Assembly (NCBI GenBank): GCA_019057385.1
Contig: JAHQJS010000007.1
Span: 683,685-747,684 of the forward strand
Origin: Candidatus Borrarchaeum weybense
GTDB lineage: Archaea; Asgardarchaeota; Sifarchaeia; Borrarchaeales; Borrarchaeaceae
Reading direction: 5' to 3'
Length of the DNA stretch: 64,000 nucleotides
Part shown: positions 10,638-63,383 of the stretch, piece by piece
How positions within the stretch are numbered: the stretch's first letter is position 1
Layout: the number at the start of each line of letters is the position of its first letter
Notes under the pieces: generated by a model
The model's database searches: none
The model's input: only the letters and a program-made list of their open reading frames with translations
What the model was told of the DNA's origin: nothing
Position numbers and translations under genes: made by a program

Positions 10638-10889
10638 CACTCCGCCGCAAGAAGACCCCTCAACTTGTAATTGTGTGTTTTAATTGTTTCACTTTCACGA
10701 TACTCCCTAACCTTTAAGTACTGATTCGCATAGATCGTAAGTAGAATTGAGCTGAGGTAACACTCGCCAGTTCTCACCTTAACTTCACATCGCGTTCAGG
10801 ACAGGGACTGCCCGTAGAGCCTGTTTGACATGTCCCGTTGGGGAATGGATGATTCAGGAAGCCAGCCTACTTGTAGGGTGGTAGTTCAC
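10638..10889 (+). mobile_element. ORF-less IS200/IS605-derived element (TTAT-target family) carrying an omegaRNA-like scaffold
   Basis: TTTAT|cactccgccgcaagAAGAcccctcaacttg left end (3' hairpin arm missing); right-end hairpin GAAGccagcctac-tt-gtagggtgg then TAGTTCAC. Confidence 0.8.
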
Positions 10890-10909
10890 TCAGTTAGCCC
10901 TTTGGCAAA
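10743..10909 (+). ncRNA. Putative TnpB omegaRNA (reRNA) plus ~20 nt flank-derived guide
   Basis: TATA-like TTTAAGTA at 10713; 5' hairpin AGAATTG..CAGTTCT; GGACAG-GGA-CTGCC stem; GCCTG..CAGG-AAG pairing; right-end hairpin. Confidence 0.55.
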
Positions 10910-11610
10910 TAGGGCATCAGTAACGTGGCCAGCAGACGCATTTCACGGTTCTGTGTATATATAATTCCAGGACCTGTAAATCGCATAACTATGCCTTCGC
11001 CTCCAAGTAAGAAACTTTTCTTGCCTCCAACTTTTGATGTACGATATTGCATGTTTGCCGGGAACGCCATCATCACTCCAGTGTCAATGACAAATTCTTC
11101 GCCTGGGCCAATCTCGTGTCGTTCAATGTAACCATATCCACCGAGCCAGACATCACCTTCGGCTTCAGCAAAAACTTTTGTTAAAAATAACCCTTCACCA
11201 CCTAACAGGCTTGCAATTTTGCCCACTTGAGTGGTGACTTGAACCGAGGGAGTGCTTGCAATATATGCATCTTTACTTAAAGTCCATTCTTCTCCTTGAT
11301 TAAGATGTATGTGAATAATGTCTCCTGGTGCTCCATGAGCAAAAGCTATCATGCCAGACTTAGTTGAACCTTCTTCAAGTTCGAAGAAGTTCAGAAACAT
11401 TGATTCTCCAGAAAATTTTCTTTTCAAACCTCGTAAGATGCCTCCTGCTGATTTCGTTTTCATATCGACATGCCCATCCATATAAACCATTGCTCCGCCC
11501 TCTGCTACTACTTGTTGTCCTGGTTGGTCTAGATAAATGCGAACTACCGAAAATGCGGGACGTCCAGTAATTTCATATCTTAAAAACGATTTTTCCTTTT
11601 CTTCAGACAT
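10894..11610 (-). CDS. AIM24 / TIGR00266 family protein
   Basis: AEGGAMVY, GESMFLN, PGDI, GGEGLF, IDTG and GGEG..FTGPG motifs. Confidence 0.9.
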   Translation of the reverse strand: MSEEKEKSFLRYEITGRPAFSVVRIYLDQPGQQVVAEGGAMVYMDGHVDMKTKSAGGILRGLKRKFSGESMFLNFFELEEGSTKSGMIAFAHGAPGDIIHIHLNQGEEWTLSKDAYIASTPSVQVTTQVGKIASLLGGEGLFLTKVFAEAEGDVWLGGYGYIERHEIGPGEEFVIDTGVMMAFPANMQYRTSKVGGKKSFLLGGEGIVMRFTGPGIIYTQNREMRLLATLLMPYLPKG

Positions 11611-11738
11611 TTTTCTTTCACCCTTTCAATTTTTTAAACGCTTTTAATTCAATTTATACCATAGTCATTTTCATCCTTTTATAGCTTGGTTTAACAGGCA
11701 GAAATCTTATTATACATTTCTTTATTAAGTTTTGAAAG

Positions 11739-12740
11739 GTGTTTGAAGTGTCTGAAATAATCATTTTATCTCAAGATGATGTAAGATCATGTCTTCCGAT
11801 GAGTGACGCTATTAAAGCGGTTACTGATGCTTACAAGGCTTTCGCACTAGGACAAGTTGAAATGCCTCAGGTTCAACACTTGGATGTGGCAAAATACAGA
11901 GGCGAAGTTGATATTAAATCGGGAGCTGCAGAGAACTTTGGACTAATTGGAACCAAGATTGCATCTGGTTATTATGATAATCCAAAACTAGGTCTACCAC
12001 CAGGATTTGCAGTCATCATCTTACTAGATCTAAAGACAAGCATGCCTCTCGCGATCATGGATGGATCATATGTTACTGCGGTCAGAACTGGTGCTGCGGG
12101 TGCTGTAGCTGCCAGTGTTCTTGCAAGAAAAGATGCTAAACGAGTGGGTGTTATTGGCTCAGGAACACAAGGGCGAATGCAGGTTTTGGCTCTAAATGAA
12201 ATTTTTCCTTTGGAGCAAGTAAAGGTATTCAATATTAACAAGGTTAACAGTGAGAAATATGCAGTTGAGATGAGTGAGCGACTTGGCATCGATGTTCAGG
12301 CTGTTGATACTGCTCAAAATGCTGTGAGTAATGTAGATATCGTTATTACGGCAGTTCCATCCAAAAAAGCTATGGTAATGGATGAATGGATTGAAGATGG
12401 CATGCATATAAATGCATTTGGAGCAGATGGTCCTGGCAAACAAGAACTAGATCCTAATATTATGAAACGAGCACAAGCAAAGATCGTGGTTGACAGCCTT
12501 AAGCAGTGTCGCGTGATCGGTGAAACCCAACATGCTCTTAAACAAGGCTTGATCCAAGAAAGTGATATCTACGCTGAGATTGGAGAGATTTTACTTGGAA
12601 ACAAAAAAGGAAGAGAGACCGAGGAAGAAATAACGGTTTTTGACAGTACAGGGTTAGCCGTTCAAGATATTGCGGCTGCGAATGTCGTGTATCAACTCGC
12701 AAAACAGAAGGATATGGGGAAACGCGTTAAGTTACTTTGA
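11739..12740 (+). CDS. Ornithine cyclodeaminase/mu-crystallin family protein (archaeal alanine dehydrogenase-like)
   Basis: TAVRTGAAGA, GSGTQG, HINAFGAD.PGKQE and FDSTGLAVQD. Confidence 0.9.
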   Translation: MFEVSEIIILSQDDVRSCLPMSDAIKAVTDAYKAFALGQVEMPQVQHLDVAKYRGEVDIKSGAAENFGLIGTKIASGYYDNPKLGLPPGFAVIILLDLKTSMPLAIMDGSYVTAVRTGAAGAVAASVLARKDAKRVGVIGSGTQGRMQVLALNEIFPLEQVKVFNINKVNSEKYAVEMSERLGIDVQAVDTAQNAVSNVDIVITAVPSKKAMVMDEWIEDGMHINAFGADGPGKQELDPNIMKRAQAKIVVDSLKQCRVIGETQHALKQGLIQESDIYAEIGEILLGNKKGRETEEEITVFDSTGLAVQDIAAANVVYQLAKQKDMGKRVKLL

Positions 12741-12779
12741 TTGAAAATATTTGATCTTATAAAGGAGTCCACGAATCGC

Positions 12780-13730
12780 ATGGTAACACTCCAAGATATT
12801 AAAGCAGCGAGGGAAGTCATAAGAACAGGTGTTAAAAAAACCCCTCTAATTCATTCAAAATTTTTAAGCAGTTATTGCGGTGGGACAGTTTACCTTAAGC
12901 TCGAAAACCAACAAATTACAAACTCCTTTAAAATCAGGGGGGCACTAAACCGAATGTCAAAGTTAAACCCTCCTGAAAAAAGACGAGGAGTCGTTACGGC
13001 ATCATCGGGTAATCATGCTCAGGCCGTTGCCCGAGTAGCTGAGCTGATGAATATTTCTGCAAGGATTTTTGTTCCAAAGAATACATCTAAGTCAAAGCTG
13101 GATAAAATTAAGAAATATAATGCCGAAATAGTACTTCACGGCGATTATGACGAAGTCGAGACAAAAGCAAGAGAAGTAGCGATAAAGGAAGGGTTAACAT
13201 ATATTAGTCCATATAACGATGAAAGTATCATCGCTGGCCAAGGAACAGTAGGTTTAGAGATTCTTGAAGATCTACCTAACGTTGATATCATCATTGTAGC
13301 AGTTGGGGGTGGAGGTTTAATTTCGGGTATAGCAATTGCAGCAAAAAGTATTAATCCAAACATCAAAGTTATCGGTGTGCAATCAGAAGCAGCAGCAACT
13401 GTTCACGAATCTTTGAAAGCGGGAAAAATCATTTGGATAAAAGAGGAAGAATCGATTGCAGAGGGATTACTGGGAGGCATTGAACAGGGTGCCATTACCT
13501 TTGAATTGATTAAAAAATATATAGATAATCTTGTGGTCGTTAAAGAAGAGACAATAAAAAATGCCATAAAAATACTATGGGAGAAGGACAAGCAAGTTAC
13601 AGAGGGCGCTGGTGCAATTGCTATTGCGCCCATATTGGAAAATAAAGATGAATTCAAAGAAAAAACTGTTGTTTCAGTAATAAGTGGAGGCAACATTGAA
13701 GAAAATCTCTTTAAGACAATCATAAACTGA
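12780..13730 (+). CDS. Threonine ammonia-lyase (PLP fold II, no ACT domain)
   Basis: KLEN.Q.T.SFKIRGA, SSGNHAQ, VGGGGLISG and SGGN; AAGGAG RBS before ATG 12780. Confidence 0.9.
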   Translation: MVTLQDIKAAREVIRTGVKKTPLIHSKFLSSYCGGTVYLKLENQQITNSFKIRGALNRMSKLNPPEKRRGVVTASSGNHAQAVARVAELMNISARIFVPKNTSKSKLDKIKKYNAEIVLHGDYDEVETKAREVAIKEGLTYISPYNDESIIAGQGTVGLEILEDLPNVDIIIVAVGGGGLISGIAIAAKSINPNIKVIGVQSEAAATVHESLKAGKIIWIKEEESIAEGLLGGIEQGAITFELIKKYIDNLVVVKEETIKNAIKILWEKDKQVTEGAGAIAIAPILENKDEFKEKTVVSVISGGNIEENLFKTIIN

Positions 13731-13740
13731 AGCTGATTCA

Positions 13741-14751
13741 ATGAATTTGCTCGCTTTTGTATTTCTATTTATTGGGGCATATGTTGTAGTTTATTTCGGA
13801 GCTGACGTTTTTATTGACGGATTAAAGGATTTTAGTGAAAAACATCATTTGTCCCCTTTAATCATCGGATTACTGATTCTAGGCGTAGATCCAGAAGAAT
13901 CTGTTGCCTCAATTTTTGCCTCCATAGAAGGTCTTCAACACGTGGCAATTGGGAATGTCATTGGAAATACTATCATTGCAATCACAATAGCATTTGGACT
14001 TCCTGCGTTATTTTTCTCTCTAGATTTCGAAAGGATCCCGAGATTTTACCCTCTTTTGCTATGTCTTCTTACAACAACTGTGATTCTAGGAGTTTATTTG
14101 CCAAAAGGTTTGCTAATTTTTGGTTCGGTCAATTTAGCATTGTTTGGGTGGTACCTACTGCGTAATATTCGCGCATACAAAGTGCGTCATATTACTGAAA
14201 TAATCATTTCTGATGATGATGATGGTGATGAAAATAATAACCAAAGTGATGAAGATGAAGCACATCAAGAGACAAAAGAACTAAAAGAAGATTCTGATGC
14301 TATTATCATCGGAAAATCGCTATTAGGATTCATTCTCATCATTATCGGTGGCTTCTTTCTCATATTTGCTACTGAGAACATTATTATCATTACCGGTTTG
14401 ACTGAATCGTTGTTTGGGTTTTTAATAATAGCTTGGACAACAAACGCAGAAGAATTATTTTTAATCGTTTCAGCTATCAGAAAACACAACCAGGAACTGG
14501 GTATTGGAGCAGAAATCGGAAAAGTTGTATGGAATTTAGGCGTCACTTTTGGAATAAGCGGAATTATTCTTCAGGATTTAACACCTACGCCAATTTATCC
14601 AATTAACCTAGCAATTCTAGTGATAGTAATTTTAATGTTCACAGGAATCTCGATTAAAAATAAATTATCAAGAAGGATGGGGATATTGTTTCTTTTAATT
14701 CTCGTTGTTTTTGTGATTGTCAACAGTGTTTTTGGACTCCCAATAAATTAA
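13741..14751 (+). CDS. Na+/Ca2+ antiporter (CaCA family)
   Basis: Two alpha-repeat-like segments (GVDPEE..GNVIGN; TTNAEE..GAEIG) and an acidic central loop. Confidence 0.8.
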   Translation: MNLLAFVFLFIGAYVVVYFGADVFIDGLKDFSEKHHLSPLIIGLLILGVDPEESVASIFASIEGLQHVAIGNVIGNTIIAITIAFGLPALFFSLDFERIPRFYPLLLCLLTTTVILGVYLPKGLLIFGSVNLALFGWYLLRNIRAYKVRHITEIIISDDDDGDENNNQSDEDEAHQETKELKEDSDAIIIGKSLLGFILIIIGGFFLIFATENIIIITGLTESLFGFLIIAWTTNAEELFLIVSAIRKHNQELGIGAEIGKVVWNLGVTFGISGIILQDLTPTPIYPINLAILVIVILMFTGISIKNKLSRRMGILFLLILVVFVIVNSVFGLPIN

Positions 14752-14837
14752 ATCTATCCAAGGTGCGCTAAACTTCCAGCTGCTAAAATGTTTGAAAATT
14801 AACTGTTAGTTTCAATTTTTCTGCTTAACTACTTTAT

Positions 14838-14882
14838 CATTTCACCGCAAGAAGACCCCTCAACTTGATGGGGGGATGAAAG
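14838..14882 (+). mobile_element. Solo IS200/IS605 left end (TTAT family)
   Basis: TTTAT|catttcaccgcaagAAGAcccctcaacttgatggggggatgaa, near-identical to the left end at 10638. Confidence 0.7.
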
Positions 14883-14896
14883 TGAACACAAATTAC

Positions 14897-14936
14897 CGCC
14901 ATTCATCACCCCGCTGAAGCGGTGGTGCTTTCTTGT
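14897..14936 (-). mobile_element. Solo IS200/IS605 left end (TTAC family), opposite orientation to the previous end
   Basis: Reverse strand caagAAAGcaccaccgc-ttca-gcggggtgatgaat matches the copies at 21060 and 63383. Confidence 0.65.
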
Positions 14937-14966
14937 TCAATCCTTTGGTAAATAGGGCATAAGTAA
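14937..14966 (-). pseudogene. 30-bp remnant of an AIM24 gene 3' end
   Basis: Encodes LLMPYLPKD* versus LLMPYLPKG* at 10894-10923; 25/30 nt identical. Confidence 0.55.
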
Positions 14967-15017
14967 ATAAACAAATAGTTCCAAAAATTCAAAAATCATC
15001 TTTATGGAAGCACGAAA

Positions 15018-15926
15018 ATGTGGACTGATCCCAACTATAGACGTTCTCTTCTCATAACAGCAGCGGCGCCTCTATGTTGGAGCATAGGTGGTCTTGGCAT
15101 AAGGATTGTAACCACCAATATATGGGAAACTGTTTTTTGGCGTGCTTTTTTCATGGGATTAACGGTACTAGTATTTTTAATCTTAAGAGACCAAAGGAGT
15201 TTTTTTAAATCCTTTAAAAGAAGCGGAATCCCAGGTGTGGCGACTGGAGTTTTTCTTGCAATGTCCATGATATTTTATGTGAATTCTCTTGCATATACCA
15301 CAGTGGCAAACGCACTTGTACTACAAGGGACTGCACCATTATTTGCCGCGCTATTTGGTTGGTTCTTACTTCGTGAACGGGTTGGAGTCAGAACAGGTCT
15401 AGCAGTTGTTATTGTGATGATAAGCATGTTTGCTATGGTATCTGACTCCCTGGTAACAGGAACATTGCTAGGAGATGTCTTCGCGTTGGGAAACGCTGTA
15501 TCGCTTGCAAGTTATATTATAGTTGTTAGAAGAACTCGCGAAATCAATTTAATTCCGGCAATATGTCTTGCTGGGTTTATTTCAGCGATTGTAGCTTTGC
15601 CATTGATGACAACCTATATGATCTCAGCACATGATCTCAGCATTTTGGTCACTCTTGGTGCAATTCAAGTAGGACTTGGTTCATGCTTGTTTGTAATAGG
15701 ATCTCGTAATTTGCAACCTGCCCAATCAGGACTTTTAACACTACTTGAAACCATTCTCGGTTCTCTTTGGGTATGGATTTTTATCGGTGAACAACCTACG
15801 ACAATCGCATTAATCAGTGGTGTAATAATAGTAATCACACTTGCTTTACATACGATTTTTGATTCTCGACTTTCTGAGAGTTCTCTCACTACAAGAAACA
15901 AGAAATCTCATCAGGATAATTACTAG
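15018..15926 (+). CDS. DMT/EamA family transporter
   Basis: About 10 TM helices; TAPLFAALFGWFLLRE and LE....W..IGEQP repeats. Confidence 0.9.
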   Translation: MWTDPNYRRSLLITAAAPLCWSIGGLGIRIVTTNIWETVFWRAFFMGLTVLVFLILRDQRSFFKSFKRSGIPGVATGVFLAMSMIFYVNSLAYTTVANALVLQGTAPLFAALFGWFLLRERVGVRTGLAVVIVMISMFAMVSDSLVTGTLLGDVFALGNAVSLASYIIVVRRTREINLIPAICLAGFISAIVALPLMTTYMISAHDLSILVTLGAIQVGLGSCLFVIGSRNLQPAQSGLLTLLETILGSLWVWIFIGEQPTTIALISGVIIVITLALHTIFDSRLSESSLTTRNKKSHQDNY

Positions 15927-16351
15927 TTTATATGTTCATGTTAATATGGCCCTATAAAATACTTGATAACAAACAAGCTAATGTATATTTCTTTTATTGT
16001 CTTAGAAGAGCCAGATCAAGAATTTAAACTCTATACGAATTGGTAAGAATAGATTTTTCACTGAAAAAACTTATACGAGCAAATAATTCTTGGTTTTAAT
16101 CAATTAGATTACTTATTTTTTTGTGATGATAAATCATGTAGAATATCTGTAATAGTAAAATTTATATATAAGTTTAACTTAACCTTTCTGTTTGCAAAGG
16201 TAAACCATAAGATGAGATGCGAGTTTCAGGTTTTCTGAATACCGTTAAAATAATACTCATTAAACTTCGTTTTTGAAAGTATTATCTTAAATCGATACCG
16301 TACACCGTAAACCACCCGTGTCTTTGAGAAATTCAAGGAGAAACACTTTAA

Positions 16352-17317
16352 ATGAATGAATCCATTGATCTAAAGAAAACTCTTTATAAAGATATAGATA
16401 AAGCTTTTTGTCGAGAGGCTTTTTGTGCAGATTGTGGATCTGCGAATGTTGTCTGTGACGATACTCGTGGTGAGATTATTTGCAATGACTGTGGGTTAGT
16501 TATTGAAGAACATATGATGGATCTGGGGCCTGAATGGCGCAGTTACACGGCAGAAGAACGAAAGAAACGAAGTCGTGTAGGAAGCCCCATTAATTATTCA
16601 ATCCATGATAAAGGCTTATCAACTATGATTGGCCGTGAAAATAAAGACATTTATGGAAAAAAACTTGCACCCAGCCGACGTGCTGAAATTTACAGAATGC
16701 GAAAGTGGCAACGACGTACTCGGACGCATAGTTCTCGCGAGCGAAACCTTATTCAAGCGTTAAGTGAGTTAGACCGCTTAGCGAGTCAAATGGGTATTCC
16801 CCGATCAATTAAAGAAGAAGCTGCGATTATCTATCGAAAAGCATTAGAAAAACGCATGAGCCGTGGTACTACCATTGAAGTTATGGTTGCCGCTACCTTG
16901 TATGCGGCCTGTCGTATCAGAAAAATTCCTAGAACCTTAGATGAAACTGCAGAACACTCACGTACTAATAAAAAACAACTAGGACAGTGTTTCAGACAGC
17001 TTGTAAGGCTGGTTGATGTAGCAATCCCCATTAGTACACCAATTGATTTCATATCCCGGTTTTCTAACGAACTTTCACTTACTGGAAAAGCATCAGGACG
17101 CGCTATAAAGATCCTTGAAACAGCTAAAAAAGCAGGGATCACTGCTGGAAAGGATCCAACCGGATTGGCCGCAGCAGCTCTCTATATCTCTGGAATATTA
17201 GAAGATGAACGACGAACACAACGTGAAATCGCACGTGTTGCACGAGTCACAGAAGTTACAGTCAGAAACCGCTACAAAGAGTTAGTTAAAAACTTGCAGA
17301 TTGCAGTAGCAGTTTAA
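16352..17317 (+). CDS. tfb: Transcription initiation factor IIB
   Basis: Zn ribbon CADC..CNDC, GPEWR, HDKGLST, two cyclin repeats, VTEVTVRNRYKEL. Confidence 0.97.
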   Translation: MNESIDLKKTLYKDIDKAFCREAFCADCGSANVVCDDTRGEIICNDCGLVIEEHMMDLGPEWRSYTAEERKKRSRVGSPINYSIHDKGLSTMIGRENKDIYGKKLAPSRRAEIYRMRKWQRRTRTHSSRERNLIQALSELDRLASQMGIPRSIKEEAAIIYRKALEKRMSRGTTIEVMVAATLYAACRIRKIPRTLDETAEHSRTNKKQLGQCFRQLVRLVDVAIPISTPIDFISRFSNELSLTGKASGRAIKILETAKKAGITAGKDPTGLAAAALYISGILEDERRTQREIARVARVTEVTVRNRYKELVKNLQIAVAV

Positions 17318-17333
17318 ATGCCCCAAAAAAGCT

Positions 17334-17357
17334 TCTCTTTTTTTTATTTTTTATTTG
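17334..17357 (+). terminator. Oligo-T archaeal terminator after tfb
   Basis: Long T-rich tract about 20 nt after the stop codon. Confidence 0.5.
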
Positions 17358-17445
17358 ATGATAATAAAAGATTTATAAACACGGTTTTTTACAGAGTTTC
17401 TGTCAGGCTCTTGACTTTCTTGAACTACATATCTTGTTACTATAA

Positions 17446-18144
17446 ATGAAGGTCCCGAAAATGCACGGCGAAGTCGAAACTTCTATGATAACACGTTATT
17501 TCATGCTGATAGTCCACGTTTTTATTATAAATTTTGTTACTTGGGTTTATTTTGGCGGTGGAATAGAGTTAATCGGTAATTTGTTCGGTATCACTTGGCA
17601 ATCAGGTGATGTGACCCGTAGAATTATCCTTCTAATTTTTAGCATTGTTTTTTTCCTCAGACTTAATCTAACATCATTTTATTTGCTTCGGCGCAAAGTA
17701 GATTGGAAAGAAACAGGTGCAATCATTGGCGCAATTGTTTTCTATCAACTCGGATTCGCGTTAAGCGGTGGTGCCCAATCTGCACCCATCGATGTCGTAG
17801 ATTATATTGCTATCATTATTTTCTTTATAGGAAGTTTCCTCAATACAGGATCCGAGTTTCAGCGAAAACGATTCAAAGACCGACCAGAAAATAATGGACA
17901 ACTCTACACTGGCGGTCTATTTGGTTTCGCAAGACATATTAACTATTTTGGTGATACTGTCTGGTTAATTGGCTGGGCGATAATGACTCGCAACTGGTGG
18001 TCCGCCATCATGCCGATATTCTGCACATTAAACTTCGTGTTATTTTTAATTCCAATGCTCTCCAAGTATTTAGAAGAACGTTACAAAGAACAATATCGTA
18101 AATGGGCCAGCAAAACCAAGAAGTTTATCCCGTTTGTATATTGA
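17446..18144 (+). CDS. DUF1295 / steroid 5-alpha-reductase-like membrane protein
   Basis: SEFQRKRFK..P.N.G.LYTGGLF..ARHINYFGD and KFIPFVY end. Confidence 0.85.
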   Translation: MKVPKMHGEVETSMITRYFMLIVHVFIINFVTWVYFGGGIELIGNLFGITWQSGDVTRRIILLIFSIVFFLRLNLTSFYLLRRKVDWKETGAIIGAIVFYQLGFALSGGAQSAPIDVVDYIAIIIFFIGSFLNTGSEFQRKRFKDRPENNGQLYTGGLFGFARHINYFGDTVWLIGWAIMTRNWWSAIMPIFCTLNFVLFLIPMLSKYLEERYKEQYRKWASKTKKFIPFVY

Positions 18145-18204
18145 TTTTTCCTTAAAAACTATGAACGTTTCTTTACTTATTAGGCTTTAATTCAGATTAA
18201 GTAT

Positions 18205-19200
18205 TTAGCGCATAATTGGCGGAGGGGAATTCTTAATGACTTCTACTATCATACGTAAGTTTTCTTCAGGTGTATCAATAGGGATGACACAACCAGGTGC
18301 AAGTAACAAGTGTGGATTGGAAATCTGCATAACTTCTTGCAGTTGCTTAGCTATAGCGAGCGATGTTCCTTTTCTAATTGTTTCAGTTTCGTCAATTCCA
18401 CCAAAGAGGCCTTTATTGAAGATTTTAAGGGCTTCTCTTATTGTTGGAGATGTATGTTGACTATGCCAGTTAATGGCGTCTATGGGATAATTATCAGCGA
18501 TATAATTGAACAAAGGCTTATTTCCATGAACATGAAACACTATAAAGTCAGCATGGGACCTGAGATCATTCAATAATTTAAGTGTATACTTAGCCTCAAA
18601 ATCCAAGAACTGTTGGTTCTTAAGTTTTCCTTCTACACTATGTAGAGAAGCAATAAAGAGGCCATTTGTACCTGCATCTAGGACTGCATGTCCGAATTCG
18701 GTCATAACCCTTGTTATTACTTTAAGGCCTTCTTCAATCTGGGAAGGAGCTTCATAAACATGATTCACGATATTAGGAGCTAGCTGACTTGCTACCATAA
18801 AGGGGCTGAAAACCGTCATCATTAACGGAACATTTCCACTTAGTATTTTCGATACCATCCGAACACCATCTAATTGCCTGCCAAATTCACCATCCGTCGG
18901 ATCCACTTCTTCGATGATCTCAAAGTCCGAAGCATTCTTGATTGGAGAGTTTAACACTGACGGTGAACCATAGATTGGATGAATCGGTCCTACTTCGCAG
19001 CCCCAGTCAACTATGCAATAACTTCCATGTGGAGTAAGTTTCAATACGTCAGAATCATACGTCTTTTGAAACCTCACATGTGCATCTGCAAAGCCCTGTG
19101 GCGTCCTATCATCGCTAGGAAAATGTTTCCATAACGCATACGCCCAACGATCTAAAGAACCGCCTGAGAAAGTTGTCATTAACCTATCCAATTTATCCAT
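18205..19200 (-). CDS. Uroporphyrinogen decarboxylase / cobalamin-independent methyltransferase-like TIM barrel protein
   Basis: TVFSPF, HVHG, INWH, GGID and LAPGCVIP motifs. Confidence 0.85.
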   Translation of the reverse strand: MDKLDRLMTTFSGGSLDRWAYALWKHFPSDDRTPQGFADAHVRFQKTYDSDVLKLTPHGSYCIVDWGCEVGPIHPIYGSPSVLNSPIKNASDFEIIEEVDPTDGEFGRQLDGVRMVSKILSGNVPLMMTVFSPFMVASQLAPNIVNHVYEAPSQIEEGLKVITRVMTEFGHAVLDAGTNGLFIASLHSVEGKLKNQQFLDFEAKYTLKLLNDLRSHADFIVFHVHGNKPLFNYIADNYPIDAINWHSQHTSPTIREALKIFNKGLFGGIDETETIRKGTSLAIAKQLQEVMQISNPHLLLAPGCVIPIDTPEENLRMIVEVIKNSPPPIMR

Positions 19201-19294
19201 ATCATCACTTTTCTACTGTCTTAATCCAATTCTCACGTTGTCTTCAATAAATATATATTAGTGCTAATATCATATATTAAGCTGGAGGACTTCT

Positions 19295-19807
19295 ATGCCT
19301 ACTAACGCTAAGCAACGAACTCTAAAGGACATAAGTGTACGTTATAATCTTCAACCGGGAGATATGGGTAACGTTGTTTATCTTCACGCTATAATTTATG
19401 CTGAGGAATACGGATTTGATCATACATTTGAAGGATACGTTGCATCAGGTCTTGCTGAATTCGCTCAATCATTCAATTCGAACAAAGATCGACTTTGGGT
19501 TGCAGAAATTAAAGGAAAAATTATTGGTTCAATCGCTGTTTTTGGACGTTCTGAATCAGAAGCACAACTTAGATGGTTTCTTGTCATTCCGAATTTCCGT
19601 GGTCTTGGGCTTGGGAAATTGCTTTTTGAGGAATCTATTTTGTTCTGCAAAAAGTGTGGATTCAAGAATGTTTTTCTGTGGACATTCAGGGGCTTAGACG
19701 CAGCAAATTATTTGTATAAATCTGCTGGTTTCGAAAAAACAGAAGAGATAACCCACGAAATTTGGGGCCAAACACTTACGGAAGAGCGATATGAATTAAG
19801 ATTGTAA
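19295..19807 (+). CDS. GNAT N-acetyltransferase
   Basis: AQLRWFLV.P.FRGLGLG and LYKSAGF. Confidence 0.9.
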   Translation: MPTNAKQRTLKDISVRYNLQPGDMGNVVYLHAIIYAEEYGFDHTFEGYVASGLAEFAQSFNSNKDRLWVAEIKGKIIGSIAVFGRSESEAQLRWFLVIPNFRGLGLGKLLFEESILFCKKCGFKNVFLWTFRGLDAANYLYKSAGFEKTEEITHEIWGQTLTEERYELRL

Positions 19808-19815
19808 TTCAACTT

Positions 19816-20382
19816 CTACAATATAGTCTTTAATTTTTTCCAATCTTCCTCGATAGCGCTTCTTAAGCCTGGATTTCTTAATGCTGCTGCGGGATGATAC
19901 ATGGGAATTAGTTTGGCTTTCAAGAACAAGGTTGATAACGAAAAGGGCTTTGTATGTATGTCTCTCATAAGGGCTTTCGGGAGTTTGAATTTCTCAAAAA
20001 TAAATTTGACCGCAACATTACCGAGCAAAATTATTGTTTTTGGTTTGATTAACTCAATTTGTTTTTCCAAATAAGGTGTACATGCTGCTATTTGATCTTT
20101 GGTAACTTTGTTCTCAGGTAAGTAGGATTTTATGATGTTTGCAATGTAGACCTCTTCTCGTTTTAATCCTGCATAACTAAGTAGTTTGTTAAGTAGTTTT
20201 CCTGCAGCACCCACGAAGGGACGTCCTTGTTGATCTTCATTATACCCAGGTCCTAGTCCTATTAACATGATTTTTGCATCTTCAGGTCCTTCCCCAAACA
20301 CCGCGTTTTTTCTTCCTTTCCATAATTCACATTTTTTACAGTTTTCTACTTGCTCTTGTAATTCTAATAATTCATTTTTCAT
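19816..20382 (-). CDS. Family 4 uracil-DNA glycosylase-like protein (variant motifs)
   Basis: CxxC, VFGEG, GRPFVG.AG and YHPAA present. Motif A reads GLGPG and KCRPP reads KSYLP. Confidence 0.85.
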   Translation of the reverse strand: MKNELLELQEQVENCKKCELWKGRKNAVFGEGPEDAKIMLIGLGPGYNEDQQGRPFVGAAGKLLNKLLSYAGLKREEVYIANIIKSYLPENKVTKDQIAACTPYLEKQIELIKPKTIILLGNVAVKFIFEKFKLPKALMRDIHTKPFSLSTLFLKAKLIPMYHPAAALRNPGLRSAIEEDWKKLKTIL

Positions 20383-20453
20383 TTAGATCGCCACAATCTC
20401 CTAAACAAATACATTAGCGAATGTAAAGAATTTTTCTATGATTAAAAATCCAT

Positions 20454-20996
20454 TTAAGGTAGAACGAATTCCCATTTGCACCATAGATCCGATGGATGCT
20501 CATCTGGAGGACATACTAAGCAGTTAACTTCAACACTTGAATTCAATGTTTTTGCAAAATTTTTCAAATAGCCAAATCGAACTTGTTTACATGGAAATTC
20601 TTCTAAATCCTTGTTCAAGCGTGCTTCTTGTGTCCTACATCTTTCAACACGCAGGATTGCACGCTGATCATTTACCTCAATAACTTTAAAGGGTTGATCT
20701 AAAGCCCAGCTTGACTTTTTCAAACAATTCATAATTGTTGGGACATCAGCATTTTCATTTACTTTAAACATTCTTCTTAAGCTTTTGGCTTCGATTTTAG
20801 CCATAATTTGCCAAACCTGACTGTCTATTTCGGTCGCAGCTTGCGTACCAAATTTTTCCTCTATTCCTAGGAAATATAAGCCATCAACACGCCATAAATT
20901 TCTTACTTGAAGAAATAAGAAATCAAGCAATTCTTCAATAGGCATTTCAGCCAATTTTTCACGATCTTTAGTACTTCCAGGGGGATAATCATTCAT
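20454..20996 (-). CDS. DUF6125-like (V4R-related) protein
   Basis: W.VDGLYF.GIEEKFG, CRTQEAR, FPCK and CPPD.HP..WC.WEF. Confidence 0.8.
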   Translation of the reverse strand: MNDYPPGSTKDREKLAEMPIEELLDFLFLQVRNLWRVDGLYFLGIEEKFGTQAATEIDSQVWQIMAKIEAKSLRRMFKVNENADVPTIMNCLKKSSWALDQPFKVIEVNDQRAILRVERCRTQEARLNKDLEEFPCKQVRFGYLKNFAKTLNSSVEVNCLVCPPDEHPSDLWCKWEFVLP

Positions 20997-21059
20997 TTAA
21001 GACACCACTAATTATTCTTAGTTATCCAACAAATGTTTTAAAATTTATCATTTCTTTAC

Positions 21060-21108
21060 TGATAACTAAGCAAGAAAGCACCAATGCGTTAGCGTGGTGA
21101 TGAATTGC
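21060..21108 (+). mobile_element. IS200/IS605 left end (TTAC family)
   Basis: TTAC|tgataactaagcaagAAAGcaccaatgc-gtta-gcgtggtgatgaattgc, nearly identical to the left end at 63383. Confidence 0.75.
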
Positions 21109-21528
21109 ATATATCACTGTTTCAATAGATAGATATTTAATTGTTCATAACATTTTTTGGCAGAATCCGTAAGTCTTAAATATAAACCCTATACTATAGA
21201 GATATATTGGGCTCGTGACAATCCAGTACATGAAGTAGTCATCATGGGACTTAGCCATGAAGCGACTAGTTATCTAGCGTTGAATTTGCTTCGGTACCGG
21301 ATTCGAATGTATTCCCGAGATAAGTATTACATATTGGTGAAGGATAAAAGAAGAATTTCTGTCGTGCACGATAAACAGTTCAGTTTTTAAGAAATGTCGG
21401 GATTGCATAAGCCCCCAGTTCTTTTTATTTAATTCTAAGAATAATGCTTTAAACAGGAATTCGTTTTTTTATCATGCAGAAACTATAATTGCTATTAACT
21501 AACAGATTAAGTGGTCGGGTGCAAGACA

Positions 21529-21942
21529 ATGATGAATCAGATAGATGCCTTCTTAAATAAGAACAATGTTTTTGCTGTTGTTGGAGTCTCAAGAAACCCT
21601 AGCAAATTTGGTTACATTATCTATCAAGATTTAAAACGAAAGGGTTACAAAGTGCTCCCTATTAACCCAAATGCCAAAATAATTAATGGCGATAAGGCTT
21701 ATGCTTCTCTTTCAGAATTACCTATTCAACCAGATGTTGTTGATATAGTAGTTCCACCAAATGTGGCTTTTTATGTTGTAAAAGAATGCAATGCACTTGG
21801 AATTCAAAAAGTATGGTTGCAACCCGGAGCCGAGTCAGATGAAGTGGTTGATTTTTGCTATGACCATGATATTGAAGTTATATACGGGATGTGTGTTTTG
21901 GTCGAATCAAGTAATGTGGGAACGGCTATGAGGCACAAATAA
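21529..21942 (+). CDS. CoA-binding protein (YccU-like)
   Basis: AVVGVS.NP.K.G, PINP, DIVVPP, WLQPGAE and GMC. Confidence 0.9.
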   Translation: MMNQIDAFLNKNNVFAVVGVSRNPSKFGYIIYQDLKRKGYKVLPINPNAKIINGDKAYASLSELPIQPDVVDIVVPPNVAFYVVKECNALGIQKVWLQPGAESDEVVDFCYDHDIEVIYGMCVLVESSNVGTAMRHK

Positions 21943-21977
21943 TGAAGTCCAATAAGCAGCAATACACTTTTGTGATT

Positions 21978-22286
21978 CTAATTTTCAAGGAAACAATGCG
22001 AGATTAAAAGTTCTTCTAAAGCGTCTAGTTCATAATGGCCACACGCTTTCAATTCTTGAAAAATTAACGTCGGAGTTGCTACAATATCATATTTTTCCGC
22101 AACCTCTGGGTATAAAGTAACATCTATTTTAGTGACTTTGATAGGTAATCCTTTATTTGCAATAATTGCTGAAAGGAATGTTTCAACTTTAACTCCATGT
22201 GAAGAATATGGGGATGTAAAAAACAGTAGATCTGACTTTGAGTCTTGTTCATTATTATCCTTTCTGGGATCCTGAAATGCACTTAT
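21978..22286 (-). CDS. Thioredoxin-fold protein lacking CxxC, with KaiB-like C-terminal motif (start uncertain)
   Basis: LFFTSPYSSHG where FTSPxCxxC is expected; IDV..YPEVAEKYDIVATPTL. A TATA box at 22342-22349 lies downstream of the ORF-track start. Confidence 0.65.
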   Translation of the reverse strand: MSAFQDPRKDNNEQDSKSDLLFFTSPYSSHGVKVETFLSAIIANKGLPIKVTKIDVTLYPEVAEKYDIVATPTLIFQELKACGHYELDALEELLISHCFLEN

Positions 22287-22535
22287 CTTAACAAACGCCC
22301 CACTTTTTCTGATATGCTCCAAATAATAACCTGCAATTTGATTATAAAAGTGATTCGGGTGCGCGCAACTGCATAGAGTAATCAAATATTCAAATTGAAA
22401 ATTCAGGAAACAAATAAGGGAAACAAGAAACAGCCACAAAACAAAGGACTAACCTTTTTTCAGAAAGACAAGAGAGAATTTCATTTTAGGTAGAATGCAA
22501 CTGTACAAAGCTTTATTTAATAAATCCAAGCATGC

Positions 22536-24494
22536 TTGCGTATGAAGTTATTTTTTAATACCTGTCCACGAGATTGTTATGATACTTGTAGTATTGTGAC
22601 CGCTGTGGATGAAGGCAAACTAATCGAAGTAAAAGCAAACTCTAATCATCCTATCACACAAGGTTATTTGTGTCCAAAAGGTCAGAACTTGATTAAGTAT
22701 GTCTATCATAAAGATCGCGTGCTTTATCCACTTAGGAGGACTGGTTCAAAAGGTGAGGGTAAATTCAAGAAAATCTCTTGGGATGATGCCCTCAATGAGA
22801 TTGCATCCAGACTGACTAAAGTGATCAACGAAAACGGATCGAAAACTGTGTTACACTACGATTATGGCGGTCATAGCGGATTAATAAGTTTAAATTTTCC
22901 AAAAAGGTTTTTCAATGCTATTGGGAGCGCAGAAACGACATACTCGATCTGTGATACTGCAGGAGAACTTGCTGTAGAATTACACTATGGTAAGAGATAT
23001 GGCAGAAAACCCGAAGAGATGCTTAAGTCAAAGTTAATCGTCTATTGGGGATTTAATGCCGCCGTAAGTAACCTTCATAATTTTGGTTTGGCAAAACAAG
23101 CTAAAGAAAAAGGAACTAAAATATATGTGATTGACCCTATCGCAAATGAAACAACAAGGCTTGGTACACATCTTAGGATACGTCCAGCAACTGATGTAAT
23201 TTTTGCCTTTGGTATCGCAAAATATCTTATCGATAATGAGCTAATTGATTCCGATTTTATAAACGAGCATACACACGGTTTTGAAGATTTTAAAGGATAT
23301 TTATCAAAATATACCACCGAATACGTCTCTAAACATACTGGAATCTCTACTCAAGACATAAAGTCTTTTGCAGTAGATTATGCTGCTCTAAAACCTAACT
23401 TTATAAATATCGGTTATGGATTGCAAAAACAAATTAACGGCGGCGAGATTGTTCGTGCTATATGCCTTCTACCTGCATTAATTGGAGTTCCTCGTGGTTT
23501 TTACTATTGTAATAGCGAAAGAGATTTTGATAAAGCATATTTGAAGGCTACACACTTGAGACCTAATAATCCAGTAAAATATGTGAGTTCACAGCTTGGT
23601 AGAGATTTGATATCAAAAGAAATCAATTTTCTTTTTGTTTACAACGCGAATCCGGCAGCTACATCCCCCAACCAAACTCTTGTCAAAAAAGGGCTTCTAC
23701 ATGAAGATTTGTTTGTTGTAGTACATGATTTGTTTTTAACAGATACCACACTGTATGCGGATATAGTTTTACCCGCGGCTTCATTCTTTGAAACGATGGA
23801 TATTAACATCTCTTATTGGCATTACTATCTCTCATTAAATCAAAAAGCAATTGAACCGATAGATGAGGCAAAAAGCAATTCTGAAGTATTCCGGCTTCTT
23901 GCAAAAAAGATGGGGCTCTCACAGCCGGAACTTTTTGAACCTGATGAAGACGTAATCAAAAAGTTAATTTCAACTTCTAAAACAATTGAAGGACGATATG
24001 AGGATTTACTGCAAAAAGGCTTCTTGCGAATGAAACAACTGCCCTTAATGGAATTCCAAACGAAATCTGGAAAAATAGAATTTAGTTCATCAAGAGCACA
24101 GGAACTTGGACTCTCAAGTTTCCCAATAGTACTGGATGAACACCCCCAATTTCCTCTACGGCTTATTTCTTCTGCACATCCCTTGATCCTACATTCTCAG
24201 TATTTTAACATTCAATCAATAAAACCATATATTCTTGTAAATCCAACTGACGCAATAAAGAGAATGATAAAAAACAAGGATGCTACTCGAATCTTTAATG
24301 AAAGAGGATCATTAGTTTTGCCAGTAAAAATCAGTGAAAACGTACCAGAAGGGGTGATTTGGACTTTTAGATCTCCATGGGTGTCATTATCACATGATAA
24401 AAAAAATGTAAATGTTCTTACTAATGATGATTTTCAAAGGTCAAGCTATGGGTCTACTTTCAATTCCACTTTCGTAGAACTTGAAAAAACATAG
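22536..24494 (+). CDS. Molybdopterin-dependent oxidoreductase (DMSO reductase superfamily)
   Basis: CPRDCYDTC..CPKG Fe-S motif, ISWDDAL, NPA..SPNQ, ADIVLPAA and C-terminal NP.DA..R domain. Confidence 0.92.
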   Translation: MRMKLFFNTCPRDCYDTCSIVTAVDEGKLIEVKANSNHPITQGYLCPKGQNLIKYVYHKDRVLYPLRRTGSKGEGKFKKISWDDALNEIASRLTKVINENGSKTVLHYDYGGHSGLISLNFPKRFFNAIGSAETTYSICDTAGELAVELHYGKRYGRKPEEMLKSKLIVYWGFNAAVSNLHNFGLAKQAKEKGTKIYVIDPIANETTRLGTHLRIRPATDVIFAFGIAKYLIDNELIDSDFINEHTHGFEDFKGYLSKYTTEYVSKHTGISTQDIKSFAVDYAALKPNFINIGYGLQKQINGGEIVRAICLLPALIGVPRGFYYCNSERDFDKAYLKATHLRPNNPVKYVSSQLGRDLISKEINFLFVYNANPAATSPNQTLVKKGLLHEDLFVVVHDLFLTDTTLYADIVLPAASFFETMDINISYWHYYLSLNQKAIEPIDEAKSNSEVFRLLAKKMGLSQPELFEPDEDVIKKLISTSKTIEGRYEDLLQKGFLRMKQLPLMEFQTKSGKIEFSSSRAQELGLSSFPIVLDEHPQFPLRLISSAHPLILHSQYFNIQSIKPYILVNPTDAIKRMIKNKDATRIFNERGSLVLPVKISENVPEGVIWTFRSPWVSLSHDKKNVNVLTNDDFQRSSYGSTFNSTFVELEKT

Positions 24495-24515
24495 TTATCC
24501 TTAGTTTTCATTTAA

Positions 24516-24562
24516 CTTTGTCGGCGGGAAGTCTCCTTCCGAGAGGGAGGGGAGGATGTCAC
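24516..24562 (+). mobile_element. 47-bp single-hairpin IS200/IS605-derived element (PATE/REP-like, TTAA family)
   Basis: TTAA|ctttgtcggcgggAAGT ctccttcc-gaga-gggagggg aggatgTCAC; its left part recurs at 40551. Confidence 0.65.
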
Positions 24563-24659
24563 ATAGATGGTTTCAAATATTTTATCTAATCTTTAGAGTG
24601 ATACCTTATATTGGTTAAAGTGCATTTAATTCTAATAACAACAATGGAGTTAGTAAAAA

Positions 24660-24767: not shown

Positions 24768-24790
24768 ATTTGAATTTTTTTTTAACTTAA

Positions 24791-25990: not shown

Positions 25991-26053
25991 ACTAAACTTC
26001 CTCTCATTGTAGGTCCAATATATGTAGAATACCCATAATCATCTGCTGGCAGA

Positions 26054-29124: not shown

Positions 29125-29154
29125 TGGAAAACAACAGATTCTTTCTTTGGATAA

Positions 29155-40630: not shown

Positions 40631-41197
40631 TTAGCGAGAGATACAACTCTTAGAATTTAAGACCACTACAAGACAGTTTAATTCTTTGTTACCTATACAT
40701 GGCGATACATTAGCTTTGACTTCTGCTATATCACCTGGTTTAGCCCAAAAAACCCATTCAGGTACGTCCATTGTAGCATTCATGTTTAAAGAACGACCAG
40801 CTATGGCATCCGCTGGAAAAGATTTATATCCTTTTAACATTTTCTTGTTAAGATAATAAGAAAACTTCTCTAATTTTCTTCCGCATTTTATACACACATC
40901 TATGATCTCGCCACTTTTTTCGTCATATTGACGTGCGATACCAGCAGGGCATAGTATCTCCATATTGCACGGTTTGCAACGATAACCTAAATTTCGTCCT
41001 GAAGAGTCTTTAGGGGCTGAATTAACAACGCACGCAAAACAATAGTTTTTCAGGTCACAAGCTACGCCATTCGTTGTAAATCTTGGCGTTTTTGATGTTT
41101 TTAATTCATTTTCTGCAACTTTTCGTGAAATTTGTGTATAGAGCATTAAATTAAAAAGAATGATTACCAATGAAAATGTTATTAGTTTTATCATCAT
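40631..41197 (-). CDS. Paralog of 39678-40349 with N-terminal hydrophobic segment; IS-derived element inserted after its original start codon
   Basis: Same CKPC..CIKC and WAKPGDIAEV motifs. Removing 41192-41520 restores GAGGGA-N5-TTG ATA AAA CTA. Confidence 0.65.
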   Translation of the reverse strand: MMIKLITFSLVIILFNLMLYTQISRKVAENELKTSKTPRFTTNGVACDLKNYCFACVVNSAPKDSSGRNLGYRCKPCNMEILCPAGIARQYDEKSGEIIDVCIKCGRKLEKFSYYLNKKMLKGYKSFPADAIAGRSLNMNATMDVPEWVFWAKPGDIAEVKANVSPCIGNKELNCLVVVLNSKSCISR

Positions 41198-41520
41198 CGT
41201 AAGAAAACCCCTCAGCTTGTTGGGGTGATAAATGAATTGCGTCTTTTACGTGTTTCACTTTCACCCAGGTCTCTGTAATTGTTAAATAATGTTCGCATAC
41301 ATATGATATGTGTCTACCTGCAGGCACGAGGTCGGCATGTGAGTACCCTTCTGAACCCTGTATGCCATAAAGCCAAGTGGGTCTGGAAGGGGACACAGTA
41401 GGGCAGGAACTGTCCGATTTAAAGCCTGTGTTAAGCCGATACCCGTTAAAGGTATGGTTGGAGACGCCGTAGGTCGTCTATAAAGCAGGAAGCCATTCAA
41501 CTTGTTGGATGGTAGTTCAC
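41192..41520 (+). mobile_element. ORF-less IS200/IS605-derived element (TTAT family) with omegaRNA-like scaffold
   Basis: TTTAT|catcatcgtaagaaaacccctcagcttgttgggg left end; shares gtttcactttcac and ttcgcata blocks with 10638; right end GAAGccattcaac-tt-gttggatggTAGTTCAC. Confidence 0.82.
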
Positions 41521-61252: not shown

Positions 61253-61593
61253 TCAGATAAAACTAACCAATTTCTGTTCTACCATATTTAAATCTCTTTT
61301 TCTCCTATAGACAGGTACATCATTTTCACGGTAAGCTGCTAGGTTTTCCTCAAAAGTTTTTTTCGGATTGATATAGAAAATACCTAAAGGATACTTTCCT
61401 TTTTCTGTTGCTCTTCTAAAAGCCTCTACTCTATCATAAGGGTCATGTGAACCGTTAAGATAATAGGTGTTCTCTTGAAACCATTTATACGCGTTAAGAG
61501 TTGTTCAATAGTAGCAATCCCCTGTCCAGCCGCACCACAGATTACAATTGAAATATCATCCTTTTTATTAACGGAAAAAGAAGAGGTTTTCAT
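61253..61593 (-). pseudogene. Deletion scar fusing the 2-oxoacid:ferredoxin oxidoreductase alpha 5' end to the beta 3' end
   Basis: [35 protein letters not shown], then in another frame [32 protein letters not shown]. Confidence 0.8.
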
Positions 61594-61763
61594 AGAAAAA
61601 TATAACCCATACCTGTGTTTAAAAAAAACTTGTGTTTAAAGAATATTCCTTTTGAATGCTACAGATTTCTAAGAACATACAATTAAATATAAAAACTTTA
61701 TAGAGATGATAATTAATCCTAATGTTCTTTTCACGATTCGTATAAGAAAGAGGAGGTAATTTA

Positions 61764-62909
61764 ATGTTAGATTTATCGGAGTTCCCAGTAATTGACGACC
61801 ATGCTCATATGTTTGGCCCAGATGCTAAAGATGCCAACCCATTAAGAAGTTTTACGATGCTAGAACATCCGAAAGACATAGAACATCAGCTTCTTTATCA
61901 TTGTGCAGCTCGTGCACTCGCGAAATTATATGGATGCACACCTGACGAAGAAGAGATTTTCAAACTTAGGAAAGCGAAAGCTCAAAATAACTTCGAGGAA
62001 TTTGTCGCTGATATTTTCCAGAAAGCAAATATTGAGGCACTTATCGTTGATCCAGGTTATCCACCCACGATTACTGTAGAAGAATTCCAAGAAATCGTTC
62101 CTGTTAAGGTATATTCAGTTCAGCGAATTGATGAACATCTATTTGATGAGGTTATGGAAGAATCCAACACTTTTGATGAGTTATTGGACACCTTCTATGA
62201 ACAATTAGATCAATGGTTTAAGAAAAAAGACGTTGTAGGCTTGAAAACGATCACAGCCTACATAACAGGTCTCAATATCCCAAGAATCGATCGTGATCGT
62301 GCAGAAGAGATTTTCAAAGAGTTCCAGAAAGACAAAAAACGTTGGATTGTCGAATTTGGTTTCGGGCAAAAGCATTATATTGGACCTTTTAAAATGCGGA
62401 TGTTTCTGTTCTGGGAAGCCTTAGCCAAGTGTGCAGAGAAAAATGTACCGTTCCAAATCCATACTGGTGATGGCGATATGGATATGAAGGACATGAAAGA
62501 AGCAAGCGCTCTCCTTCTCCAAAAGAGTGTTTTAAACGACGAAATAGCAAAACAGGTGGAACTTGTCCTAGTCCATAGTAGCTATCCAGAAGTGGAGTTT
62601 GCTAGTTATCTTAGTTATGTATATACGAACGTCCATATCGACCTCTCGCATCTAAACCCTTTTCTGAATGTACTCGTTGGTCGAAAAATTGAGGAAGCAT
62701 TTATGTGGACTCCTTTTAGCCGTATTTTGTTCGGAACGGATGCATATGGTATTCCTGAGTTCTATTGGTTTGGAGTGATGAACTTCAAGAAAGAATTAGA
62801 AAGAGTTCTTGGTTATTTAGTAGCTAGAGATGCACTTGATGAGGACTATGCGTATAAGGCTGCCGGAATGATCCTATCGGAAAACGCGAAAAAACTTTAC
62901 AGTCTATGA
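61764..62909 (+). CDS. Amidohydrolase (FluG/NodGS N-terminal-like)
   Basis: IDDHAH, GLKTI.AY.TGL, QIHTG.GD, LVH..YP and FGTDA..PE. Confidence 0.9.
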   Translation: MLDLSEFPVIDDHAHMFGPDAKDANPLRSFTMLEHPKDIEHQLLYHCAARALAKLYGCTPDEEEIFKLRKAKAQNNFEEFVADIFQKANIEALIVDPGYPPTITVEEFQEIVPVKVYSVQRIDEHLFDEVMEESNTFDELLDTFYEQLDQWFKKKDVVGLKTITAYITGLNIPRIDRDRAEEIFKEFQKDKKRWIVEFGFGQKHYIGPFKMRMFLFWEALAKCAEKNVPFQIHTGDGDMDMKDMKEASALLLQKSVLNDEIAKQVELVLVHSSYPEVEFASYLSYVYTNVHIDLSHLNPFLNVLVGRKIEEAFMWTPFSRILFGTDAYGIPEFYWFGVMNFKKELERVLGYLVARDALDEDYAYKAAGMILSENAKKLYSL

Positions 62910-63161
62910 ATTTTGCATAGGAACTTTGTCAATCAATTTATTTTTTTTCATCTCCTTTGCACTCCTGGAAAAACGCTGGTTTTTGATTAATTGGACCTCA
63001 CTTTGAGCCAGATACAAGTATGACTCTATTTGGAAAGCCTATATCAATGCCAATCTTAGGCTGAAACGGCTAATAAAATCGAAAATGCAATTTCTGCTAC
63101 AATTGCTGAAGGAAAATATGTCACATACGATTAAAAGCCTCCAGAAAAAAAAAGATGAAGC

Positions 63162-63298
63162 AGTGGGCACAAAAGAATACAGTGAGCTACCTCGTGCTAA
63201 AGCCTCGAGGCTTCCTGCTTCAACGACGGACTCGATCCCCTTGTGGGTTACGGAGGTCTTATCTCCACAGGCTTAACATCCCTACGCCCCGTAGGTAC
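63162..63298 (-). ncRNA. Putative omegaRNA plus flank-derived guide
   Basis: TTTATATA begins 30 nt before GTACCTACG-GGG-CGTAGG; GCCTG..GCAGGAAG; right-end hairpin. Confidence 0.62.
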
Positions 63299-63383
63299 TA
63301 TAATTGGTTTCATAAAAAACTATATAAACATCACGCAATTCATCACCACGCTAAAGCAGTGGTGCTTTCTTGCTTGGTTATCA
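63182..63383 (-). mobile_element. ORF-less IS200/IS605-derived element (TTAC family) with promoter and omegaRNA-like scaffold
   Basis: TTAC|tgataaccaagcaagAAAG + hairpin left end; right end GAAGcctcg..cgagg TAGCTCAC. The empty site restores the reading frame, with no target duplication. Confidence 0.88.

Follow-up and report, generated by a model that had tools for sequence, protein, structure and literature searches.

The stretch of DNA that we analysed, 64,000 nucleotides (nt) from the Asgard archaeon Candidatus Borrarchaeum weybense, contains three short elements of the IS200/IS605 type, which we call E1, E2 and E3. (The whole stretch, hereafter the window, is 683685-747684 of contig C7, JAHQJS010000007.1; the host genome is 4.18 Mb in 8 contigs, with 37% G+C.) None of the three contains an open reading frame (ORF) of at least 120 amino acids, and all are built to one plan: a left-end hairpin, a TATA-like box, a 22-nt spacer, a conserved structured block, and a terminal TCAC. 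The block has the same order of parts in each element, namely a 6-bp hairpin (P1), GCCTG...CAGG around inner hairpins, AAG, a right-end hairpin, and TAG(T/C)TCAC. The left-end and right-end hairpins are subterminal and imperfect, with compensatory changes between families. A preliminary description of the window, made from the letters alone, had given the coordinates of these elements and their common architecture, and every part does lie at the given position. The starts that it predicted for the structured regions also agree with the starts of the conserved blocks, which are 22 nt past the TATA box at about 10743 (E1), 41311 (E2), and 63298 (E3).

We built a covariance model (R1) from E3-type copies alone. 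In the window, R1 aligns across its full model to E3 (139 bits), to E2 (34.9 bits, E = 3e-5), and to E1 (22.9 bits, E = 0.01). Because a model of E3 alone also recovers E2 and E1 at full length, we consider the shared architecture to be real. The likeness among the elements is also far above chance, with dozens of genome copies per type (blastn). A scan of the elements against Rfam found no family at its gathering score. The RAGATH-18 match on E3 was below threshold (24.9 bits, E = 2.8) and we took it as chance. The features are:

10633..10637 (+): TTTAT target-adjacent motif (TAM), left of E1; every E1-type copy is preceded by TTTAT
10638..10889 (+): E1, a 252-nt ORF-less IS200/IS605 mini-element of the E1 family
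10714..10721 (+): E1 TATA box, TTTAAGTA, the tnpB promoter of the full-length insertion sequence as judged by alignment with full-length copies
10743..10776 (+): conserved 5' hairpin block of the predicted E1 RNA
10797..10889 (+): E1 core scaffold (P1, GCCTG...CAGG, inner hairpin, AAG, right-end hairpin, TCAC); R1 matches 10798-10889
10890..10909 (+): predicted E1 guide, antisense to the stop and last codons of the AIM24 gene (10894-11610, - strand)
41187..41191 (+): TTTAT target motif, left of E2
41192..41520 (+): E2, a 329-nt ORF-less mini-element of the E2 family
41282..41289 (+): E2 TATA box, TTAAATAA, 22 nt ahead of the predicted transcribed block
41311..41399 (+): E2-specific 5' RNA domain of 89 nt, conserved at 87% in relative G005 and 74% in G018
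41400..41520 (+): E2 core scaffold, an E1-type scaffold with one extra hairpin; aligned with the tnpB 3' ends of loci L001, L023 and L025
41521..41540 (+): predicted E2 guide, antisense to ORF 40631-41197 (- strand) over its TTG start codon and GAGGG ribosome-binding site
63384..63387 (-): TTAC target motif, left of E3
63182..63383 (-): E3, a 202-nt ORF-less mini-element of the E3m family, in its class of about 204 nt
63321..63328 (-): E3 TATA box, TTTATATA
63182..63298 (-): E3 scaffold (P1 as CCTACG/CGTAGG, GCCTG...CAGG, shortened inner hairpins, right-end hairpin, TCAC)
63162..63181 (-): predicted E3 guide, the 3' flank

Copies, helper genes and full-length relatives

E1, E2 and E3 are members of three repeat families. 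A scan of the whole genome for the right-end motif gave about 99 sites, of which 63 have no ORF of at least 120 amino acids and 27 end a tnpB ORF of at least 300 amino acids (ORF-less copies outnumber tnpB copies by about 2:1). By right-end type, the sites are:

E1 type: 26 sites, 12 with tnpB and 12 ORF-less
E2 type: 6 sites, none with tnpB and 6 ORF-less
E3 mini type (E3m): 35 sites, none with tnpB and 33 ORF-less
E3 full type (E3F): 14 sites, 8 with tnpB and 5 ORF-less

R1 finds 37 copies of E3m in the genome. The E2 family has three more full copies, and two E1-like mini-elements carry an E2 right end. Nearly all copies have TTTAT (E1, E2) or TTAC (E3) at the left and TCAC at the right, in line with insertion 3' of a fixed motif with no duplication of the target.

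Candidate helpers are present in the same genome. It has 41 matches to the TnpB zinc ribbon and a single TnpA of the Y1 type (Y1_Tnp gene, C7:194221-194586). The IS605 that bears this tnpA has a left-end hairpin unlike those of E1 and E3. The cognate tnpB genes (12 intact genes of E1 type and 8 of E3F type) encode 388-445 amino acids and contain the Pfam domain OrfB_IS605 and the TNB domain. Judged by eye, D/E/D-like RuvC motifs are present in the translations, and also where these are aligned with an ISDra2-like TnpB-type nuclease of solved structure. E1-type TnpB aligns with ISDra2 TnpB (8h1j) over nearly its full length (E = 5e-54), and its closest relatives are from metagenome-assembled genomes of Borrarchaeum, Sifarchaeum, and Promethearchaeota. 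With gene-less elements in the window, and tnpB copies and one Y1 TnpA elsewhere in the genome, the proposal that the elements are non-autonomous IS200/IS605 derivatives is borne out.

The full-length relatives of E1 are about 1.37 kb long, and 12 copies carry tnpB. The E1 minis match them in two stretches: the left end through the TATA box, and the last 93 nt (93-98% identity). The 93-nt block holds the last ~10 codons of tnpB and its stop codon, followed by the right end; in the full-length relatives, an omegaRNA-type scaffold lies at just this place, across the tnpB 3' end and the right end. Thus, the earlier statement that no tnpA or tnpB coding remnant lies between promoter and scaffold is correct in that there is no ORF there, but the scaffold itself is a remnant of the coding 3' end of tnpB. 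In the full-length copies, the aligned counterpart of the E1 TATA box is TTAAATAG, which lies about 60 nt ahead of the ATG of tnpB. By this alignment, the E1 box is the parental tnpB promoter, which an internal deletion has moved beside the scaffold. Between the two matching stretches, the E1 minis have a conserved 34-nt block (identity 0.91 among ORF-less copies) that folds as a 12-bp hairpin. We considered whether this 5' block was a diverged copy of the RuvC-III coding region of tnpB, but in alignments the similarity fell short of significance: among 2000 shuffles, 33, 369, and 780 reached as high a score.

E3m and the tnpB-bearing E3F-A elements have P1 and the first 37 nt of the scaffold in common, at 97% identity. 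The long inner hairpin, which is protein-coding in E3F-A, is replaced in E3m by a short CCC-GCAA-GGG hairpin. The E3 scaffold still retains tnpB-derived stretches (PTGRRDVKPVE and SVVEAGSL). A second class of E3m, of 315 nt, has an extra upstream block whose full-length counterpart lies inside tnpB, about 170 nt upstream of P1. One full-length E3F-A element (G000 C6:869115-870825, L002) has an unusually long leader of about 400 nt; this leader contains a second copy of the "U block", which is normally inside tnpB, and suggests a nested or rearranged insertion. As for E2, its core consists of an E1-type scaffold and a further hairpin of 22 nt, and it has the 89-nt 5' domain as well.

Both gene-less types are found in other genomes. 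E3m is multi-copy and ORF-less in all four genomes of the same genus and in G035, which belongs to another family of the phylum, and ORF-less E2-type copies are present in G002, G004, and G005. Of the four E3m-bearing relatives examined for E3F-type tnpB, three have it (G001, G004, and G035; G003 was outside this comparison). We did not find it in G002, which carries E3m and is 77% complete, nor in G005, a genome without E3m. Across this genome and the 40 relatives searched, no tnpB-bearing element has an E2 or E3m scaffold.

Conservation and covariation of the promoter and scaffold

We computed the mean pairwise identity of each segment for the E3m class of about 204 nt (33 copies from 5 genomes) and for the E1 minis (12 copies):

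Flanks: 0.28 in E3m, 0.19-0.27 in E1 minis
Left-end core: 0.79 in E3m, 0.86 in E1 minis
TATA box: 0.79 in E3m, 0.84 in E1 minis
22-nt spacer: 0.48 in E3m, 0.59 in E1 minis
5' block: none in E3m, 0.91 in E1 minis
Linker: none in E3m, 0.67 in E1 minis
Scaffold or core: 0.86 in E3m, 0.94 in E1 minis
Right end: 0.85 in E3m, 0.98 in E1 minis

Such an order (a conserved box, a spacer of fixed length whose sequence drifts, a conserved block) is what one expects where an archaeal promoter drives a functional RNA. A signal that acts in transposition only as DNA would not give this pattern.

The preliminary description had named stem covariation as a check on an RNA, and we found it both within E3m and across families. 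Within E3m, 97.8% of cells are paired, and both sides have changed in 24 cells versus 11.3 in shuffles (0 of 500 shuffles were as high). The long-range pair 34:78 switches from G-C to C-G. We had initially drawn the inner helix of E3 as GGAG/CTCC, and this was dropped in favour of the long-range helix from RNAalifold that includes the covarying pair 34:78. Across families, both sides have changed in 22 of 30 pairs, with a covariation score of 0.416, compared with 0.128 for shuffles and no more than 0.097 for slid controls, although these pairing counts are inflated because the cross-family alignment (A3) was fitted to the model. All six pairs of P1 covary across families (CCTACG/CGTAGG, GGTAGG/CCTACC, and GGGCAG/CTGCCC).

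Insertion sites, guides and competing explanations

Contigs from four independent metagenome studies could be compared with window positions 9301-29300, which cover the E1 site among the three loci. At this site, we see three states. The element is present in an X8 contig that spans the left junction (10395 to 10766). It is absent, as a precise empty site with TTTAT joined straight to the flank, in an X7 contig that joins 10638 to 10891 and in a minor X4 contig that joins 10637 to 10899 via 9 diverged flank letters (the shorter side of each of these joins is only 29-30 nt). In the major X4 contig and in X5, a 46-nt remnant is left, with the left-end tip fused to the right-end hairpin. These states, along with the many copies in the genome, suggest that the elements have moved in the past.

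The genome also contains about 17 single-hairpin "nano" elements that have no scaffold, several of which are near-identical. An example in the window is the 46-nt element at 30779-30824 (- strand), in which a left-end tip (GCAAGAAGAC...) is fused to the right-end arm and TCAC. Other derivatives in the window are less simple. At 14838-14946, two left ends meet head to head, an E1-type one on the + strand and an inverted E3-type one on the - strand, and form a 109-nt chimera, with TTTAT on one side and TTAC (as its reverse complement) on the other; the X4 and X8 contigs skip these 109 nt. At 21061-21118, an E3-type left end follows TTAC and reaches an ATCAC end after about 58 nt with no scaffold, and X7 has 109 different letters in its place. 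A solo hairpin at 39651-39681 resembles a right end, terminates in TTTAC, and has a weak R1 match (20.8 bits); ahead of it lies a tandem duplication of 17 nt (39601-39634).

The predicted guides of E1 and E2 fall on neighbouring genes, and the antisense geometry that had been described for them is correct: the E1 flank covers the stop codon and last codons of AIM24, and the E2 flank covers the ribosome-binding site GAGGG at 41531-41535. E2 was apparently inserted between the TTG start codon (with GAGGG upstream) and codon 2 of ORF 40631-41197 (- strand). The tip of its left end, CATCAT, now gives ATGATG, and the ORF stays open, 329 nt from its former ribosome-binding site. The idea that the elements form a genome-wide repertoire of guides fared less well. 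When 89 guides were compared with the genome, none matched beside a TAM at a second place. Each guide therefore fits its own donor site alone, which speaks for homing more than for a regulatory role or a broad repertoire of guides.

We propose that E1, E2 and E3 are gene-less, non-autonomous derivatives of tnpB-only IS200/IS605 elements (miniature inverted-repeat or palindrome-associated transposable elements, MITEs or PATEs) whose omegaRNA is used in trans. We give this a probability of roughly 60%. Our data show how the elements are built and related, that cognate tnpB and tnpA genes are present, that promoter and scaffold are conserved and the stems covary, and that the E1 insertion is polymorphic; transcription, binding by TnpB, and cleavage are what we infer from sequence. 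Internal deletions would have taken out tnpB but spared both ends, the TATA promoter of tnpB, the RNA scaffold, and the site of cleavage at TCAC. A transcript that starts about 22-25 nt after the TATA box would pass through the scaffold into the 3' flank and yield an omegaRNA whose guide matches the element's own insertion site. TnpB from full-length copies could then bind this RNA in trans. After excision by TnpA, TnpB would cut the restored joint of TAM plus guide at the donor site, and recombination would copy the element back. This retention model is that of Meers et al. (10.1101/2023.03.14.532601).

A bolder version for two of the families is possible, at less than even odds: E3m and E2 may be independent, long-lived transposon lineages that carry only a guide RNA and exploit the TnpA and TnpB of other elements. 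They would have their own conserved archaeal promoter, and a scaffold that was reshaped once the protein-coding constraint was lost (E3m was shortened, and E2 gained a hairpin and a 5' domain). They would have spread across Asgard genera without ever carrying a nuclease gene, and would outnumber their helpers.

Several observations weigh against our proposal. No full-length element bears the exact E3m or E2 scaffold, so for these families the TnpB partner is suggested by similarity and co-occurrence only. The scaffold-less nano elements are multi-copy too, which means that a derivative does not need the scaffold to persist or spread, and this tempers the argument from selection. Folded as single sequences, E1 (z = -0.05) and E3 (z = -0.03) are no better than shuffles, and the whole predicted E2 RNA has a modest z-score for its minimum free energy (-2.2). 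The copies are related, so much of the covariation within a family may come from a few events, and the across-family counts have the inflation mentioned above. The missing Rfam match is another such point. Finally, a run of four Ts starts 8 nt into the E3 flank (63162-63181, - strand); it could act as an archaeal terminator and would leave a very short guide.

The elements might instead be plain MITEs that are mobilised by TnpA, with no functional RNA and with a promoter and scaffold that are either passive remains of recent deletions or kept alike by gene conversion with full-length copies. The nano elements and the near-zero folding z-scores fit this, and gene conversion could explain why the E1 minis have a 93-nt block that is near-identical to full-length copies in the same genome. 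We think it unlikely, as no full-length donor in the genomes searched has the scaffold of E3m or E2, and in both families the TATA box and scaffold have nonetheless been kept in different genera, with drift in the 22-nt spacer. Passive remains would also not be expected to show compensatory changes in P1 and the inner helices, or to swap a long coding hairpin for a short capped stem with the architecture kept. Another way to account for a conserved interior is that it is needed as DNA, for instance because TnpA or a host factor reads it as a longer right end on single-stranded DNA during excision or integration. The hairpins would form equally well in single-stranded DNA, covariation of the right-end hairpin (helix 6) is expected from recognition by TnpA alone, and the motif CAGGAAGCC-hairpin-GGTAGTTCAC is common to all families, including the tnpA-bearing IS605. 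But this gives no role to a conserved TATA box at a fixed 22 nt from a conserved block, and ends of about 46 nt evidently suffice for the nano elements in their ~17 copies. In IS608 and ISDra2, too, the required ends are short subterminal hairpins. We therefore consider a DNA-only role improbable, more so than passive remains.

We give even less weight to domestication, in which the elements would be antisense RNAs, or guides for a TnpB-like protein, that control AIM24, ORF 40631-41197, and the MIT-domain gene. Nuclease-dead derivatives of TnpB are known as RNA-guided repressors, and both window guides next to genes run antisense to them, that of E1 at a 3' end and that of E2 around a start codon and ribosome-binding site. 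This seems very improbable given that the E1 locus is polymorphic among strains, that copies lie at differing sites with unrelated flanks (identity ~0.27), that the resident TnpBs retain their catalytic motifs, and that no guide has a further TAM-adjacent target.

If the RNAs are made and used as we propose, then these elements would be a natural Asgard example of the smallest unit that can still benefit from RNA-guided homing, made up of a promoter and a guide scaffold between two ends. The families also provide comparative data on which parts of an omegaRNA are dispensable, as E3m is trimmed and E2 is extended, which is relevant to the engineering of compact TnpB editors. More broadly, they bear on how transposons parasitise one another's transposase and nuclease.

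Relation to known systems

To call such elements new would be an overstatement. According to Altae-Tran et al. (2021; summary in PMC10691335), mobilised stand-alone omegaRNA loci that lack both effector and transposase act in trans with compatible effectors, and PATEs "often encode omegaRNAs" for action in trans (Meers et al., 10.1101/2023.03.14.532601). Because both were already published, the elements in the window do not open a new category. As far as the summary in PMC10691335 describes the stand-alone omegaRNAs, they resemble our elements in being loci without effector or transposase in genomes that also have effector-bearing loci. Relative to that account, our elements differ in the Asgard host, in an archaeal TATA promoter that was inherited from tnpB, in a ratio of ORF-less to tnpB copies of about 2:1, and in the E3m and E2 scaffolds, which are on no tnpB element in the genomes searched; also, function in trans is a prediction here.

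The PATE-like IS605-family elements of Geobacillus stearothermophilus (10.1101/2023.03.14.532601) are likewise minimal, with left and right ends and no protein gene. Their host is bacterial, and promoter retention and scaffold evolution were not analysed in that study, whereas we document that a TATA box is conserved at a set distance and that a scaffold has been shortened in nature. Our elements resemble the TnpB/omegaRNA system of ISDra2 (where the RNA is also called reRNA; PDB 8h1j, 8exa) in a scaffold that covers the tnpB 3' end together with the right end, and in a predicted guide from the 3' flank. The TAM is TTTAT or TTAC instead of the TTGAT of ISDra2, and the mini-elements have no tnpB at all. 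Haloarchaeal sense-overlapping transcripts (sotRNAs) or omegaRNAs (RF02656, RF02657; PMC12558985) are also archaeal IS200/IS605 omegaRNAs that overlap the 3' end of tnpB. Those are described as products of processing of the tnpB transcript, whereas in the mini-elements the promoter is directly upstream of the scaffold, and there is no Rfam match at the gathering score.

To these systems, our analysis adds an Asgard host, an E1 promoter that is the parental tnpB TATA box, and data on conservation and covariation. It also adds trimmed (E3m) and extended (E2) scaffolds that have no tnpB-bearing counterpart in the genomes searched, and a three-state polymorphism at the E1 site.

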